Positions 21,001 through 39,000 of a stretch of DNA of 64,000 bases are shown here, in pieces (position 1 is the stretch's first letter; each line of letters starts with the position of its first letter). Source of the stretch: an uncultured Spirochaetota bacterium (GTDB taxonomy: Bacteria > Spirochaetota > Spirochaetia > SZUA-6 > Fen-1364). The DNA is taken from positions 224,001-288,000 of the forward strand of contig CAWGAA010000002.1 in NCBI GenBank assembly GCA_963820525.1, given 5' to 3'. The position numbers were made by a program.

Positions 21001-24000
21001 TTATCGTGATCTTGGAGAACGTCAGCGCCACTTCTTCCAGCAGCCGGCCGTTGGTTCCCGTGGCGGCCGCGGGCTGGAGCGAGGTTATGATAACGTCCTC
21101 GAGCTCGAACTTGAGAATAGGAAACGTCTCATTGCCTCCACTTCGCAGGACCTCAATGTCCGCGCGTGGGATCTGGTCCCCGTTGGCCGCGTACAAGAAG
21201 AGGCTCGGAGAAGAGCGGTCTATGACTTTGAGGATTGTGAAGCTTCCGAATTCGGCCTTGGATGAGCCGCCGCCGGGAGTCATAGAGCCGGATCTCTCCA
21301 CGCCGAAGTGGTAGCCGACCGTGTCGATCCAATCCCTGTGGTGCTGGTCCGTCGATTCTCCATTTATTTGTTCAAGTTTTGTAAAAATGTCGCATCCGGT
21401 CGGAATGACGATGCCGTCGCTGGAAGCGCCTTGACCCATGCCTTCCAGGTTGACGGTCACATCGCTGGGATCTCCCTTCGGACCCGGGGGACCTTGCGCT
21501 CCGGGATCTCCTTTTTCACCCGCCGGTCCCGTCTGGCCCACGGGGCCGGGAAGACCTTCAGGTCCTATCGGGCCGGTTGAGCCTGCGGGGCCGGGAATGC
21601 CCGCCGGACCCATGGGACCGGTCGGACCTGCAGGTCCGGCAGGGCCCATTGGCCCAACCGGTCCCTTCTCCCCTTTGGGCCCAGGGATGAGATGAATCGA
21701 GCGGACGGCTTTCCAGAGCTGCTGGATGTCGCGCTCGATCCGCTCAAGTCTGGCGTTCTGATTGCCATCCCCCCTGCCGGGTCCGTCGTTGTCTGTCGCC
21801 CACGCTTTCATGGTTAAAAAAGAAATGAATAGGGCGATGATCAGGATCAATCGACGTTCTGTTTTCATACTTTCCTCCTCTTGCGTCGAACGGTACCATG
21901 GACGACGAACAGAGGCAAGCGATGGAACGGTCGATTGAGGCATTCTTCCCCGCGTGGAACGCGTTTTGGGGCAAAGTTGGGACACGCGATGCCTTCGGAA
22001 GATCGCTCTTCATTCTCGACTGGATTGTCTCGAATCAGCCCTATTCTCTTACAGTCGCACGAGAGTGTCCCAATGCATGCAATTACAATGATTATATAGG
22101 AATACATGAACGCACTTTCCCGGAAGCGTCATTCTGCTAAGCGATCACTGATTAGCATGGAGCGACGGCAGTATAAGACTATTGAAAGCATGGCATGCTT
22201 TTTGCACAAAATATCATTGACTATCACACCGGGTGATATGTGAAACTCATCGATACAAAGCTCGCACGCCGAGAGCAGGAGGTGATATAACTGTCTAAGG
22301 TGTCAGCTTTGTAGGAGAGTGTCATTTCCAAAAAACGGAGGTGCATTATGAAAAGGTTCCTCGTCTGTCTTCTTGCCCTTCTTGTCCTGGCGGCCTTCAG
22401 CGTTTACGCGGGTGGCGCCAAGGAAGCGGGACCGGCTGCGGGAAAACATCCGATCAAGAACAACACGATCACCATAGCCTGGATACCAAAAGCGTTGAAC
22501 AACCCGGTCTTCGAATTGGGCCGCGTGGGCGCCCTTAAAAAGGCTGAGGAGTTGACCGCCAAAGGTCCCTACAAGGTGAACATCTTGTACGTCGCCTCGG
22601 TGGCATCGGACATTGCGGAGCAGGCGCGGGTTGTCGAGGATGTCATCGCAAAAGGGGTTGACGCCATCGGCATCTCGTGCAACGAACCGACGGGCTGTGT
22701 AGACCCCATCCAGAAAGCGGTCAAAGCGGGAGTCGAGGTCATGACGTGGGATTCAGATTCGCCGAAAAGCGGGCGTTTCACCTACCTGGGTGTCGACAAC
22801 TATGAGGGCGGGAAGGCCGCTGCAGACCTGCTCGTGAAAGCCATGGGGACCAGTGGAGATGTCGCCCTGCTCACCGGCGTGCCGGGAGCGTTCAACCTGG
22901 AGGAGCGCATCCGCGGGTTCAAAGACGGCGTCAAGAACTACCCGAACATCAAGATCGTAAAGACCGTGGCCTGCAACGACGACATCAACCAGGGGGTGCA
23001 GGTCGTGGAGGAGACCATGCAGTCGAACCCCGACCTGAAGGGCTGGTTCTTCGTCGGTCTCTGGCCGCTGTTCGCCAACCGCGGCTCCATGAAGAGCTGG
23101 GAAGCGGCAGAGAAGGCAGGCACGTTGAAGACGATTTCTTTCGACACGCTTCCGGTGGAGCTGGACTTCGTGAAGGATGGATACGTCCAGGGCCTCGTTG
23201 GCCAGAAATACTGGGGCTGGGGATACGACACGGTCCAGATGATCTATGATAAAATCGTCAGCGGGAAGACCTTCGGTTCGTTTACCAACTCCGGCATGGA
23301 TCTCGTCACGCCGAAGAACGTTGCTGTCATGGCCGACATGTGGGCCACAATGGACTTCACCAAGACCCTGCCGCCGGCCTTTTAAAAGGTGCGCAGGAGC
23401 TTTCGTCCCGGCCGGGGTCCATCGCGTCCCCGGTCGGTTTTTTTTCGACGCCGCGCAAACCGAATATGAGTGATGACAGGGCTTTCCTCTTGCAGATGCA
23501 GCAGATATCCAAATCCTTTCCCGGAGTCCAGGCGCTGGACGGCGTGGACCTGGAAGTCCGTGCCGGAGAGGTTCTTGCCCTGGTGGGCGAGAACGGCGCG
23601 GGCAAGTCCACCCTGATGAAGATCCTGAGCGGCGCTCATCGCAAGGACGCGGGGCGAGTCTTTCTGGAAGGAAGGGAGGTGGAGATCGAGAACCCGCACC
23701 ACGCGCTGCAGCTGGGTATCGCCATCATCTACCAGGAGTTCAACCTCACCCGCAACCAGACGGTGGCGGCGAATATCTACATCGCCCGCGAGCCGCGCGT
23801 GGCAGGGCTTGGCGGCGTGTTGGGCTTCGTCGACCGCTCCCGCATGGAAGCGGACGCCAGCCGGGTTCTCCAGCGCATCCGGTCGAAGATTCCCGTCGAC
23901 GTCAAGGTGCGGGATCTTTCCGTGGCCCAGCAGCAGATGGTGGAGATAGCCAAGGCCATCGCGGTGCAGGCGAAGATCCTGATCATGGACGAGCCGACCG

Positions 24001-36000: not shown

Positions 36001-39000
36001 TCGTCACCGGCAATATCGACCTGTCGGTGGGCTCGGTCACCGGGTTCGTCGGCGTGATCGCCGCGTACCTGCAGGCCATCGTGTTCGCGAAGATCCTGCC
36101 CGGCCTGATGCCCCACGCCTCCCTCCTGGAGGTCGCCATCGTCTCCACCGCGCTCACGGTCGTTCTCTGCCTTGTGGTGGGCAGCGCGATCGGGATGCTG
36201 CAGGGCGCCGTGGTCGCCTTCATGAACGTGCCTGCGTTCATCGTAACCCTCGGCGGGCTCCTGATCTTTCGCGGCGGCATCCTGGGCATCACCCAGGGAA
36301 AGACGATCGTGCCGATCGAAGAGCCGTTCAAGCAGATAGCGCAGGGCTATCTCTCCGGCCCGGTCGGTCTTATCCTGGCCGGCGTCGTCATCGTCATCAT
36401 CTTCGCCTTCACCTTCTGGAACCGACGGCAGAGGAGAAACTACGGTTTTGTCCTGCAGCATCTGTACCTCGACCTGCTGAAGGCCGGGCTCTTTTCCCTG
36501 GCGGTTCTGCTCTACGTCGTCATCATGAACATGTACCAGGGGGTGCAGAACCCCGTGCTGCTGATGGCTGTTGCGGCGGTCTTCTTCAGCTACGTCACCA
36601 ACAATACGCGCTTCGGCAGGTACGCGTATGCCATCGGCGGCAACAAGGAGGCGACGAAGCTCTCCGGCATCAACATCCAGCTCAATGTCTTCAAGGTGTT
36701 CATCCTCATGGGTTTCCTCTGCGCCGTGGCGGGGATCGTCCTCACCGCCCGGGTCGCCGCCGGAACGATTTCCGGCGGCCAGAACTACGAGCTGTCCGCC
36801 ATAGCGGCCTGCGTCATCGGCGGCACGAGCCTGATGGGCGGGGAGGGCACCATATTCGGCGCCATCGTCGGCTCGCTGATCATGGCCAGCCTGGAGAACG
36901 GCATGAGCGTGATGAACATGGACATCTTCTGGCAGTACATCATCCGTGGGCTCGTTCTCATCTTCGCAGTTTACGTGGACGTCGCCTCCAAGAAGAAGCG
37001 ATAGCTCTGGACGGCGGATCCGAAAGCTTGGCAAGGCCGACGATGTCATCGCAAAGCGGAAAGGTGTACGATGACGGGGCGGCGAGCGGTCATGAAAGAG
37101 AACGAGTATGCGTGGCAGAGCGGATCCGGCCCCGCTGCCATTTCGGCCTCGGAGATCCATCTCTGGCGGATTTCCCTGGAACAGAGTCAGGACCGTATCC
37201 TGATCCTCCGCGGAACCCTCTCCCCTGACGAGAGACGGATGGCAGAGGCCTTCCGCGCCGAGAAGGACAGATCTTCCTTCTGCCTCTGCCGCGGCTTTCT
37301 TCGGATGCTTCTCGGCCGCTATAGCGACGCGGCCCCTGCGGAGGTTCGATTTCGCCGGGGGGAGTACGGAAAGCTTTCTCTGGATCCGCTTTTTCACCAG
37401 GAAGACATAGAGTTCAATCTCTCCCACTCGGGGTGCGTGGCCTTTTTTGCTCTAGCGAGGGAACGGCGGCTCGGTGTGGACGTGGAGAAGATCCGCACGA
37501 CCGCCGGAATCGGCGACATATCCCGCGGTTTTTTTTCACCGGAAGAGGACGGGGCGATCCGTGCCCTGCCGGAGGGAATGAAGGCCGATGCGTTCTACGC
37601 CTGTTGGACGCGAAAAGAGGCGGTGGTCAAAGCGCTCGGCGGAAGCATCGCGAAGCTCTCGGGCAAAGTCATCGTCTCTACGTCTCCCGGCCAGCCCGCG
37701 AGGCTTCTCCGGATGCCCTGTGGGCGTGGAAAAAACAGCGAGTGGCGCCTTCATGACCTGCCTGCGGGTGAGAGATACGCGGCCGCCTTGTGCTACGAAG
37801 GTCCGCAGGCCGCGGTTTTTCTATGGGAACCGGACGAGTGATCCATGAGAGTGGCTCATCCTTCCGGGGACGCAGTCACGAGGCCGTCGGCGGGGGCGAC
37901 GTATTGAGACCAGCGTGGCGGGAGTAGAGCCGGTAGGCATCGCCCACCGTCTTCACGTTCCAGGCTTCTTCGAAAGGGATGCCGATGCCTTCCTCCCCCA
38001 AATGCAGCAGCATCTCCACCAGCCGGATCGAATCAACGGACAAGTCTTGGACAAAGGAGGCTTCAGGTACGACTTGGCTCTCCTCCACCTGCAGCTCCCG
38101 GGCAATCAAACGCCGGAACTCTTCAAAGGGGATGGGGTCACCGGGGTTTTTCACGTCGTGCCTCCTTTCAAATCCTGGAGTGCCATGGCGCGCATCTTGA
38201 ACTTTTGCGATTTGCCCATTTCCGCCTGGGGAAACTCACTCATGAAGCGCACCTGGCTGGGGATCTTGTAGGGCTCCAGAGATCTCCGGCAATAGTCCAG
38301 AACTTCCTGGACCGTCATCTCTGCGCCTTCCTTCAACCGGAGAAAAGCCCATACACTCTCCCCTCCCACCGCCGCCGGCACGCCCACCACCGCCGCCTCT
38401 CCAATCTTGGGGTGGGCAGCCAGGAAGCTCTCGATCTCCGTCGGATAGATATTCTGCCCGCCGCGTATGATGAGATCCTTCTTGCGCCCCACGATGCGCA
38501 GGTAGCCCTTCTCATCGATCGTGGCAAGGTCTCCCGTATAAAGCCAGCCTCCTTCATCGATTACCTCGGCGGTCAGCTCGGGGGCCTGGTAGTAGCCAAG
38601 CATCACACCATCGCCGCGGATGGCCAATTCCCCCACCTGACCAGGCGGAAGGTCGCGTCGGCTCTCATCCACGATTCTGACCTCGATCCCGGCCATCGGA
38701 CGGCCTACTGTCTCGGCCTGTTGGGCGTCGGAATCGGCCAGACTGCCGCAGGCGATCCCTCCCGCGGCCTCGGTCATGCCGAAACCGATATAGACGGCGC
38801 AGTTGAAGCGCTGCTGGATCTCCCGAGCCAGAGAAGGCGGGCACGGCGCGGCCCCGGTTCCACAGACGAGCAGGGATGAGGTGTCAAAGCGGTCCAGGTC
38901 CGGCAGCCCCAGCATAGCCTGATATGCCGTCGGTACCGCCACCAGGACCGTCACCCGCTCTTGTTCCACGAGTGCCAACGCCTCTTGTGGATGGAACTGG

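Follow-up and report, generated by a model that had tools for sequence, protein, structure and literature searches.

Two back-to-back modules at positions 22191-37004 of the window (the whole 64-kb stretch of DNA that was analysed) each combine a CUT2 sugar ABC importer operon, consisting of a binding protein, a double-NBD ATPase, and a permease, with a response regulator of the NtrC type and a histidine kinase that has no membrane part. There is strong support, from sequence comparison, that the N-terminal 245 residues of these kinases are an ATP-binding ABC domain derived from the first nucleotide-binding domain (NBD1) of CUT2 ATPases, and equally strong support for a sigma-54 promoter driving each importer operon, with the NtrC-type regulator and the soluble HisKA kinase encoded alongside. 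The docking of the kinase NBD onto the permease is plausible, as yet unproven.

Two importer modules with soluble kinases

The gene order given in an earlier note on this DNA, namely binding protein, double-NBD ATPase, and BPD_transp_2 permease in each module together with two REC/Sigma54_activat/HTH_8 regulators, was recovered with Pfam (Table 1); the starts of ATPase1, RR2, SBP2, ATPase2, and PRM2 have been refined to those listed. The best NCBIfam matches of SBP1 are of the RhaS, RbsB, and AlsB type, all below cut-off, ATPase1 is XylG/RbsA/AraG-like (545-559 bits, below the equivalog cut-offs) with the NBD2 motifs GLVGAGRTE and LSGGNQQK, and PRM1 is RbsC/GguB/AraH-like, its conserved loop T..G...YAVGGN..A..LSGI being located at residues 200-226. 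SBP2 is XylF/ChvE-like (NCBIfam; 338.8 bits against the xylF model, cut-off 389.55) and ATPase2 scores 681 bits against the xylose ABC ATPase model (cut-off 699). The REC domain of RR2 starts directly after its ATG, and the RR2 stop overlaps the HK2 start.

Table 1. Features of the two modules, in window coordinates.
Feature	Position	Strand	Evidence or remark
Sigma-54 type -24/-12 promoter, importer operon 1, TGGCATGCTTTTTGC	22191..22205	+	143 nt before SBP1 ATG
SBP1, sugar-binding protein (Peripla_BP_4)	22348..23385	+	Pfam E 2.3e-60
ATPase1, CUT2 double-NBD ATPase, 506 aa	23466..24986	+	two ABC_tran stretches (Pfam)
PRM1, CUT2 permease (BPD_transp_2), 332 aa	24992..25990	+	Pfam E 7e-44
HK1, soluble NBD-PAS-HisKA-HATPase_c kinase, 603 aa	26005..27816	-	Pfam, motifs, hydropathy
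RR1, NtrC-type response regulator (REC, sigma-54 AAA+, HTH_8; GAFTDA loop)	27830..29146	-	Pfam
RR2, NtrC-type response regulator, 439 aa, GAFTDA loop	29725..31044	+	Pfam
HK2, soluble NBD-PAS-HisKA-HATPase_c kinase, 604 aa	31041..32855	+	Pfam, motifs, hydropathy, AF2 model
Perfect inverted repeat CTATTGCC-N7-GGCAATAG, candidate activator-binding site	32977..32999		ends 48 nt upstream of -24 element
Sigma-54 type -24/-12 promoter, importer operon 2, TGGCACGGAGCTTGC	33047..33061	+	exact match; 41 nt before SBP2 ATG
SBP2, XylF-like sugar-binding protein	33103..34158	+	Peripla_BP_4 E 3.9e-57
ATPase2, CUT2 double-NBD ATPase, 514 aa	34267..35811	+	Pfam
PRM2, GguB-like CUT2 permease, 398 aa	35808..37004	+	ATGA overlap with ATPase2 stop; coupling loop residues about 270-290

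When both strands of the 64 kb were searched for TGGCAC-N5-TTGC with up to one mismatch, only two matches were obtained, before SBP1 and SBP2 and on the correct strand. Together with the REC, AAA+, and HTH_8 domains of the regulators and an rpoN gene found in the genome, these -24/-12 sites characterize a sigma-54 two-component system; of 20 related loci, 12 have a similar site no more than 400 nt ahead of a transporter gene. The inverted repeat ahead of the second promoter may serve as activator-binding site. In both regulators GAFTDA replaces GAFTGA, a variant found in 3 of the 15 activator-like ORFs of the genome, nine others having GAFTGA. The regulatory circuit formed by kinase, regulator, sigma-54 promoter, and importer is well supported.

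The kinases are built in the order ABC-NBD, helix, PAS, HisKA, and HATPase_c. Pfam places ABC_tran at 23-172 (E 3e-22), HisKA at 394-451, and HATPase_c at 494-602 in HK1, with weak PAS matches, and ABC_tran at 24-172 (E 3.6e-22), PAS_10 at 266-370, HisKA at 391-453, and HATPase_c at 496-602 in HK2, in agreement with the earlier note. HisKA and HATPase_c exceed the Pfam cut-offs in both chains, as in kinases of the HisKA class, and ABC_tran reaches about 80 bits (cut-off 25), as in NBDs of PF00005. The motifs reported previously (GEHRAGKS, ILIFDE, ISHD, and LSMAEQ/LSLSQQ) were found again in the translations, together with the variants LIIFDE and ITHN; the two paralogues are 45% identical over residues 8-602, and no transmembrane helix is apparent, the top Kyte-Doolittle 19-mer being 1.43 in HK2 and 1.39 in HK1 versus 2.71 in the permease. 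In the AF2 model of HK2 the NBD blocks mostly have a pLDDT of 85-93, and a helix (residues 248-270) joins the NBD to the PAS domain (275-369). Among 32 kinase sequences, His398, Asn507/511, DxGxG 541-545, F558, and GLGL 569-572 are invariant. The linker (70% mean identity) and the NBD (60%) are the best conserved parts, followed by the catalytic domain (51%) and the PAS domain (41%).

Descent and distribution of the kinase NBD

Both identity and phylogeny group the kinase NBD with the first NBD of CUT2 ATPases. It is 31-35% identical to the N-terminal halves of the window ATPases (E 1e-37 to 1e-47) and 24-30% identical to their C-terminal halves (E 1e-17 to 1e-25), and it matches the N-terminal halves of the CUT2 ATPases (TC 3.A.1.2) RbsA, XylG, AraG, MglA, and YtfR with E 1e-42 to 1e-58. 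In a tree inferred by a quick method from 20 sampled kinase NBDs, all 20 are set off by a single branch (SH-aLRT 99) and are joined with the CUT2 N-terminal halves (93). Since these kinase NBDs form one clade, a single old fusion would be the simplest reading. Unlike CUT2 ATPases, which have two tandem NBDs in a chain of about 500 aa, the kinases have a single ABC_tran stretch followed by the PAS and kinase domains, and their NCBIfam CUT2 ATPase matches cover model positions 1 to about 250, far below cut-offs. The kinase family is marked by a GEH in Walker A (with His in 55 of 58 kinases) and by DE[IVL]S and TYSF where CUT2 ATPases have DEPT and the inter-domain linker MVGR, respectively.

The nucleotide site has been retained: of 58 kinases, all have the Walker A Lys and the Walker B Asp, and 57 have the Q-loop Gln. 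The signature motif is poorly conserved, with Ser in only 19 of the 58, and the window kinases have LSMAEQ and LSLSQQ instead of the canonical LSGGQ. This had been taken for a special degeneration of the kinases, a view that does not hold, as the first NBDs of the window's own ATPases have LSVAQQQ and LGVGQRQ in the corresponding position. One degenerate site is described for RbsA in PMC11466899; judged from this source and from the sequences, the deviation in the kinases is of the kind that CUT2 NBD1 already shows.

The kinase family is large, its architecture being common to 119 of the best 120 90%-identity clusters listed. The conservation claimed previously is borne out by matches at E <= 1e-60 in 13/13 other genomes of the family and 14/47 other genomes of the order (28 of the 61 genomes sampled in the order); across the phylum, 14 of 401 genomes are positive, with at most three candidates scored per genome. 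The likewise claimed pairing of kinase and regulator with CUT2 importer genes is found in 55 of 60 related loci (19/20 and 36/40), although these loci are kin and the counts overstate their independence; the genome holds only about 20 CUT2 permeases in 5 Mb. The partner operons differ and handle substrates of differing chemistry, being xylF-like and ribose-like in the window and containing GatZ/PfkB and shikimate-dehydrogenase-like genes elsewhere. At one well-covered locus (L105), the pair adjoins arabinose catabolic genes and a gene for a LacI-type regulator; an importer was not found within about 8 kb.

The kinase NBD and the importer

We propose, with confidence just short of even, that each module constitutes a self-inducing sugar-uptake circuit in which the kinase NBDs are seated on the permease. 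The kinase would act as a dimer whose two NBDs replace one double-NBD ATPase: having the same number of NBDs, the dimer could occupy the permease dimer in the ATPase's stead, and the problem of a 'third NBD' may thus be solvable, the kinase sitting there instead of the ATPase and not beside it. The NBD pair would rest on conserved loops (GGN..A..LSGI) that the cognate permease dimer exposes to the cytoplasm. Docking of the sugar-loaded binding protein outside would lead the permease to permit closure of the two ATP-bound NBDs, and this closure would be transmitted through the conserved helix to the PAS domain and on to the DHp and catalytic domains, switching autophosphorylation; the phosphorylated regulator would then activate sigma-54 transcription of the importer genes. 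The importer would lend its substrate specificity to the kinase, so that one conserved input domain would serve importers of different sugars. More generally, we tentatively suggest, at somewhat less than an even chance, that the importer is the receptor: a complex of binding protein, permease, and kinase would report outside sugar to a kinase devoid of any transmembrane part, and the NBD would be a plug re-usable across CUT2 permeases. As such a plug would fit a loop common to all of them, one kinase family could be re-used for many substrates.

An earlier complex prediction placed contacts on permease residues 266-288 and NBD residues 89-119. Mapped onto the sequence, the former stretch is the CUT2-conserved cytoplasmic loop GRYAYAIGGNKEATKLSGI of PRM2 (398 aa), and the latter is the Q-loop and the start of the helical subdomain, a segment that agrees with the ATPase consensus in the kinases. 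No solved homologue of the permease was found by sequence, and the predicted docking therefore does not simply reproduce a CUT2 complex of solved structure. The docking idea fits the descent from NBD1, the kept Q-loop segment, the conservation of NBD and linker, and the differing partner substrates. Given the deviating signature, both ATP sites of a kinase homodimer would be non-canonical, and such a dimer may fail to close in the manner of a normal ABC dimer. The importers retain complete ATPases of their own, and the pair at L105 has no importer nearby; both points count against docking.

The earlier note had advanced a class of sensors that use an ABC NBD as input domain to read out transporter flux. 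Its architecture, the lack of a membrane anchor, the CUT2 and sigma-54 pairing, and the conservation stand, but covariation, which is flat, does not speak for the readout. After correction for kinase-core divergence, Spearman coefficients of NBD divergence with permease and binding-protein divergence are -0.03 and 0.01. Kinase divergence as such is only weakly related to importer divergence (Spearman 0.08-0.30), which a portable plug would lead one to expect. Between 23 CUT2 permeases linked to a kinase and 18 others the coupling loop does not differ, and nothing visible marks the cognate permease, which leaves specificity among the genome's about 20 paralogous permeases (cross-talk) unexplained.

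Alternatively, and in our view rather unlikely, the PAS domain is the real sensor, responding from within the cell to the imported sugar or to a metabolite, whereas the NBD never contacts the permease and binds ATP/ADP, either gating the kinase by energy state or switching its dimerisation in an ATP-dependent manner. Being the most variable domain (30% identity between the window paralogues), PAS behaves as expected for ligand adaptation, yet it matches generic PAS models only, without any ligand-binding family signature in Pfam. After correction for kinase-core divergence, its divergence shows faint coefficients of 0.09 with the permease and 0.13 with the binding protein, the latter being the sole relation of any domain to binding-protein divergence, albeit a very weak one between non-independent pairs. 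The invariance of Walker A and B implies that ATP binding is selected whatever the partner, and L105 lacks a neighbouring importer. However, this explanation does not account for an input domain that is always of the CUT2 NBD1 type, for the adjoining CUT2 importers in most loci, or for the persistence of the ATPase consensus in the segment that faces the permease in ABC ATPases.

It is improbable that the kinase NBD reads the importer ATPase instead, by pairing with an ATPase NBD, which would be easiest where the ATPase has a single NBD, or by competing with the ATPase during its cycle, so that kinase activity reports flux. The single-NBD partner ATPases of 262-281 aa at L091, L104, L126, and L129 could form mixed dimers, in which the good Walker A of the kinase might face the signature motif of the partner, and in a reassembly study of RbsABC nucleotides reportedly loosen RbsA from RbsC; nevertheless, both window ATPases are single-chain double NBDs and offer no free half for a mixed dimer. 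That the kinase dimer is a second motor, powering some transport through the same permease with signalling as a by-product, seems very improbable. The catalytic Glu (54/58) and the H-loop His (45/58) point to continued selection for hydrolysis in most members, but the signature is non-canonical in both copies of the homodimer, and complete ATPases are encoded alongside the kinase wherever the contig allows.

Comparison with known signalling systems

Literature searches, including reviews, yielded no description of an ABC-NBD sensor kinase, and to our knowledge every kinase described as sensing through a transporter is a protein of its own that meets the transporter in the membrane. We class the NBD-kinase as a variant of transporter-coupled sensing with an unstudied design. 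A covalent NBD-kinase would be a hard-wired form of such sensing and would offer a simple way, open to experimental test, for a soluble kinase to read a nutrient outside the cell; if the plug model is true, the kinase would also serve as a portable sensor part with which any CUT2 importer could be turned into a sugar biosensor, and it could inform how closure of ABC NBDs is coupled to binding-protein docking. In MalK-MalT and PstB/PhoU-PhoR, the ATPase subunit of an ABC importer informs a transcription regulator or a kinase of the transporter's state; these links are non-covalent, via accessory domains or proteins, whereas here the NBD is within the kinase chain.

According to PMC4513084, PMC10314905, and PMC8534201, the BceS-BceAB system of Firmicutes similarly has a kinase without its own ligand-binding domain that is signalled by an ABC transporter, and a regulator that induces the transporter's own genes. 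In these sources, however, BceS is a separate membrane protein whose contact with the permease BceB lies within the membrane, and BceAB is a resistance pump that resembles exporters; the window kinases are soluble, carry a covalent ABC NBD, and are paired with binding-protein-dependent CUT2 importers and sigma-54 regulators. Assignment to a Bce-type module, with its two-helix membrane kinase, was rejected, as no 19-mer exceeds 1.43 on the Kyte-Doolittle scale. In XylFII-LytS and ChvE-VirA, as reviewed in PMC8050422, sugar-binding proteins activate membrane kinases, and a CUT2 importer (xylFGH) is induced through the two-component system when a Peripla_BP_4 protein detects sugar outside; there the binding protein contacts the periplasmic sensor domain of the kinase. 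The window kinases are without membrane or periplasmic part, and an outside signal would therefore have to pass through the permease.

The kinase family has been named only by automatic transfer (AtoS). AtoS/NtrB-type kinases and Thermotoga ThkA (PDB 3a0r) resemble the PAS-HisKA-HATPase_c part (AtoS model, 242 bits over residues 257-602; ThkA, E 4e-37 over 262-586) but are without an ABC domain. The AtoS equivalog (NF008468) was rejected for both kinases, which score 219 and 242 bits against a cut-off of 646 and match it over the C-terminal 350 residues only.

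Two importer-linked kinase modules

Two regulatory modules lie back to back at 22191-37004 of the window, and in each a CUT2 sugar importer (binding protein SBP1 or SBP2, double-NBD ATPase, permease) accompanies an NtrC-type regulator (RR1, RR2) and a kinase (HK1, HK2) that begins with an ABC nucleotide-binding domain (NBD). NCBIfam models liken the importer of module 1 to ribose/rhamnose systems and that of module 2 to xylose systems, with 338.8 bits for xylF, 681 for the xylose ATPase and 339 for a GguB-like permease in module 2; these three scores are all under the cut-offs, some just under. 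Directly upstream of module 1, a 354-aa ORF (20921-21985, minus strand) pairs collagen triple-helix repeats at residues 117-174 with, at its C-terminus, a T6SS Hcp domain (201-330), an unusual Hcp fusion. Downstream of module 2 are genes for a 4'-phosphopantetheinyl transferase (37071-37841, plus) and an AMP-binding enzyme (38151-39776, minus), which have no relation to the modules as far as seen.

Features of the two modules (window positions; all genes of module 2 are on the plus strand)
Feature	Position	Strand	Remark
Sigma-54 type promoter, module 1	22191-22205
SBP1	22348-23385
ATPase1 (double-NBD)	23466-24986		506 aa
BPD_transp_2 permease, module 1	24992-25990
HK1	27816-26005	opposite	after RR1
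RR1	29146-27830	opposite	converging on importer operon 1
DUF1622 small membrane protein gene	29212-29538	minus	between the modules, between the two divergent regulator genes
RR2	29725-31044	plus
HK2	31041-32855	plus
Perfect inverted repeat	32977-32999		module 2
Sigma-54 type promoter, module 2	33047-33061	plus
SBP2	33103-34158	plus
ATPase2	34267-35811	plus
PRM2 (permease, module 2)	35808-37004	plus

The two kinases (603 and 604 aa, 45% identical) both match ABC_tran, PAS, HisKA and HATPase_c, and neither contains a hydrophobic 19-mer above 1.43, which bears out the claim of an earlier note that they are membrane-less kinases fused to an NBD. With 32 sequences as input, AlphaFold2 gave a model (mean pLDDT 79.4) of four parts: a complete NBD, with blocks mostly at pLDDT 85-93, is followed by a helix (248-270), a PAS fold (275-369) and a long helix (371-417) that continues into DHp and the catalytic domain. 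In the family alignment the kinase boxes show no variation, and the mean pairwise identity in the same 32 sequences is 0.60 for the NBD, 0.70 for the linker, 0.41 for the PAS domain, 0.60 for DHp and 0.51 for the catalytic domain. Prediction of a kinase homodimer (two copies of residues 1-385 with 2 ATP and 2 Mg, 32-row alignment) scored 0.01 and 0.12, where the mark is 0.42, and weighs neither for nor against pairing of the NBDs.

A regulatory logic in which the kinase acts on the NtrC-type regulator, and the regulator on a sigma-54 promoter of the importer, is well supported. Both regulators consist of REC, Sigma54_activat and HTH_8, and rpoN is present in the genome. When the 64 kb were searched on both strands for TGGCAC-N5-TTGC with at most one mismatch, two sites were found, one 143 nt ahead of SBP1 and the other 41 nt ahead of SBP2, both on the coding strand. 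Two sites do not exceed the chance expectation of 3.25, but their placement is not chance-like. Of 20 related loci, 12 have a similar site no more than 400 nt upstream of a gene recognised as part of a transporter. At four loci (L099, L100, L103 and L105) the site adjoins the regulator gene, ahead of genes not matched by the queries used; the unmatched genes behind such sites include shikimate-dehydrogenase-like and Peripla_BP_4 genes. The sigma-54 contact loop of RR1 and RR2 reads GAFTDA, not GAFTGA. This form occurs in 3 of the 15 activator-like ORFs of the genome, and the FTDA variant in 4 of 19 partner regulators scanned at related loci (three GAFTDA, one GSFTDA; the others G[AS][FY]TGA or no match).

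A conserved family next to CUT2 importers

The architecture is real and conserved. Among the best 120 clusters listed, 119 have ABC_tran, HisKA and HATPase_c at an identity of at least 50%; their source names are automatic (AtoS, 'ATP-binding protein') and their taxa are Spirochaetia and Candidatus Vecturithrix. At E <= 1e-60, matches occur in 13/13 other genomes of the family, in 14/47 other genomes of the order (as many as four copies in one genome) and in 14/401 genomes of the phylum sample. The genome itself holds exactly two copies, as against about 20 BPD_transp_2 permeases.

A search for loci by peptide patterns, which included a generic HisKA motif, yielded full-length relatives at just 3 of the 80 loci kept, and a genome search was used instead. 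The regulator-kinase pair has CUT2 importer genes next to it in 19 of 20 and in 36 of 40 loci; these loci, from related genomes, are not independent of one another. Four of the five loci with no adjoining importer have a contig that ends at, or about 2 kb past, the regulator end of the pair. The fifth, L105 (7762-16230), has no importer near the pair, and its neighbours are araA (L-arabinose isomerase), araD (class II aldolase), an FGGY kinase and a LacI-type regulator; a sigma-54-like site at this locus is oriented toward a Big_5/Ice_binding protein gene, with the regulator gene behind it. The partner importers are diverse: their ATPases have two NBDs or one, their permeases number one or two, and their types of binding protein and catabolic genes vary. 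Some kinase-linked importers, at L091 (5803-6600), L104 (2723-3511 and 6008-6853), L126 and L129, use single-NBD ATPases of 250-281 aa, which branch outside the groups of first (NBD1) and second (NBD2) domains.

HK1 and HK2 are HisKA kinases carrying an ABC NBD. In function they resemble MalK-MalT and Pst-PhoU-PhoR. A similar likeness links them to BceS-BceAB (PMC4513084, PMC10314905, PMC8534201) and to the binding-protein-driven kinases of LytS-XylFII, which controls xylFGH, and VirA-ChvE (PMC8050422). They belong to none of these types; they have neither membrane segments nor a periplasmic sensor and carry the NBD in the kinase chain itself. Full-text searches of the literature (few subscription journals and no supplements, so that an earlier census mention is possible) and term searches in three reviews (PMC6978683, PMC8534201, PMC8050422) turned up no account of a histidine kinase fused to an NBD. 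Transporter-coupled sensing is itself known. No published study of the NBD-kinase architecture was found in the literature covered.

Origin and motifs of the kinase NBD

The kinase NBDs are 31-35% identical to the N-halves of the window's ATPases (E 1e-37 to 1e-47) and 24-30% identical to the C-halves (E 1e-17 to 1e-25). In a quick IQ-TREE phylogeny of 72 rows, all 20 kinase NBDs fall on one side of a branch (SH-aLRT 99) and this group joins the CUT2 N-halves (93), while the 22 C-halves form a separate group (99). Since the kinase NBDs group together and join the N-halves, a single old fusion of a CUT2 first NBD with a PAS kinase is the simplest reading. Two subfamilies (9 and 11 rows) follow the fusion, and HK1 and HK2 both belong to the first.

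Across 58 kinases the Q-loop Gln is kept in 57, the catalytic Glu in 54 and the H-loop His in 45, with the signature Ser in just 19. A vestigial NBD is rejected, as the domain is better conserved than the catalytic domain and its ATP-binding residues, Lys of Walker A and Asp of Walker B, do not vary among the 58. The signature had been called degenerate, and LSMAEQ and LSLSQQ do deviate; this is nevertheless not peculiar to the kinases, as the window's ATPases have LSVAQQQ and LGVGQRQ at that place. According to PMC11466899, one NBD of RbsA has a signature that deviates, and its second Walker A lacks the lysine. Family marks are GEH in Walker A (His43 in 55/58, Arg44 in 33/58), DE[IVL]S in place of DEPT, and TYSF in place of the MVGR linker of the ATPases. 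With its single NBD the kinase falls outside the definition of a CUT2 ATPase, its score with the AtoS model is under the AtoS cut-off, and no NCBIfam model spans the fusion.

Possible sensing mechanisms and other fusions

We tentatively favour a mechanism in which the kinase dimer seats on the permease dimer via its two NBDs and senses through the permease, the input step being the part we infer. The two NBDs of a kinase dimer would be the complement of one double-NBD ATPase and would seat on the conserved cytoplasmic loops of the permease dimer; docking of the loaded binding protein and ATP-dependent NBD closure would then reach the kinase core by way of the conserved helix of the linker. Several observations favour such seating: the NBD descends from NBD1 and has kept its nucleotide site intact, it and the linker are strongly conserved, the Q-loop segment resembles that of ATPases, and the linkage is to CUT2 alone. 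Two more in its favour are that one conserved input domain serves diverse substrates and that the kinase and importer phylogenies are weakly tied (Spearman 0.08-0.30). The contacts predicted for the NBD-permease complex in the earlier note lie exactly on the permease's conserved loop and on the Q-loop segment of the NBD; no solved structure similar to the permease by sequence was found.

Other results speak against seating. Covariation was assessed by domain over 40 modules (780 pairs, not independent), with DHp and CA identity regressed out; the residuals against permease and binding protein were -0.03 and 0.01 for the NBD and 0.00 and 0.01 for the linker, so that no NBD-permease covariation is seen in these non-independent pairs. 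The corresponding values for the PAS domain were 0.09 and 0.13, and the analysis does not discriminate between the models. The main rival explanation, less likely than seating, is that this variable PAS domain binds a sugar or metabolite inside the cell, with the NBD serving as a gate that depends on ATP. Also against seating on the permease are locus L105 and the cognate permeases, which carry no marking feature at the consensus level (23 kinase-linked versus 18 others). Moreover, a homodimer would hold two non-canonical ATP sites. Pairing of the kinase NBD with the ATPase, a lesser rival, is improbable, and a motor role for the kinase is slightly more so.

A representative-library search with NBD plus linker returned 21 kinase-type proteins (by length and a single stretch) among the best 150, the others being mostly CUT2 ATPases, and no NBD-GAF kinase among those 150. 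Two clusters of the protein Atlas (166 and 64 members, about 830-850 aa, mostly Actinomycetota) list ABC_tran with HisKA, the larger also GAF_2 (99%) and the smaller HATPase_c; they possibly represent another type of NBD kinase. In the representative library, three CUT2 double-NBD ATPases (P0135, P0144, P0164) are fused to a Peripla_BP_4 sugar-binding domain, located after both NBDs in P0135 (530-786) and after the first in P0144 (267-521); such a domain would place a sugar-binding module in the cytoplasm, directly on the motor. Another library protein, P0224, is a permease-ATPase fusion.
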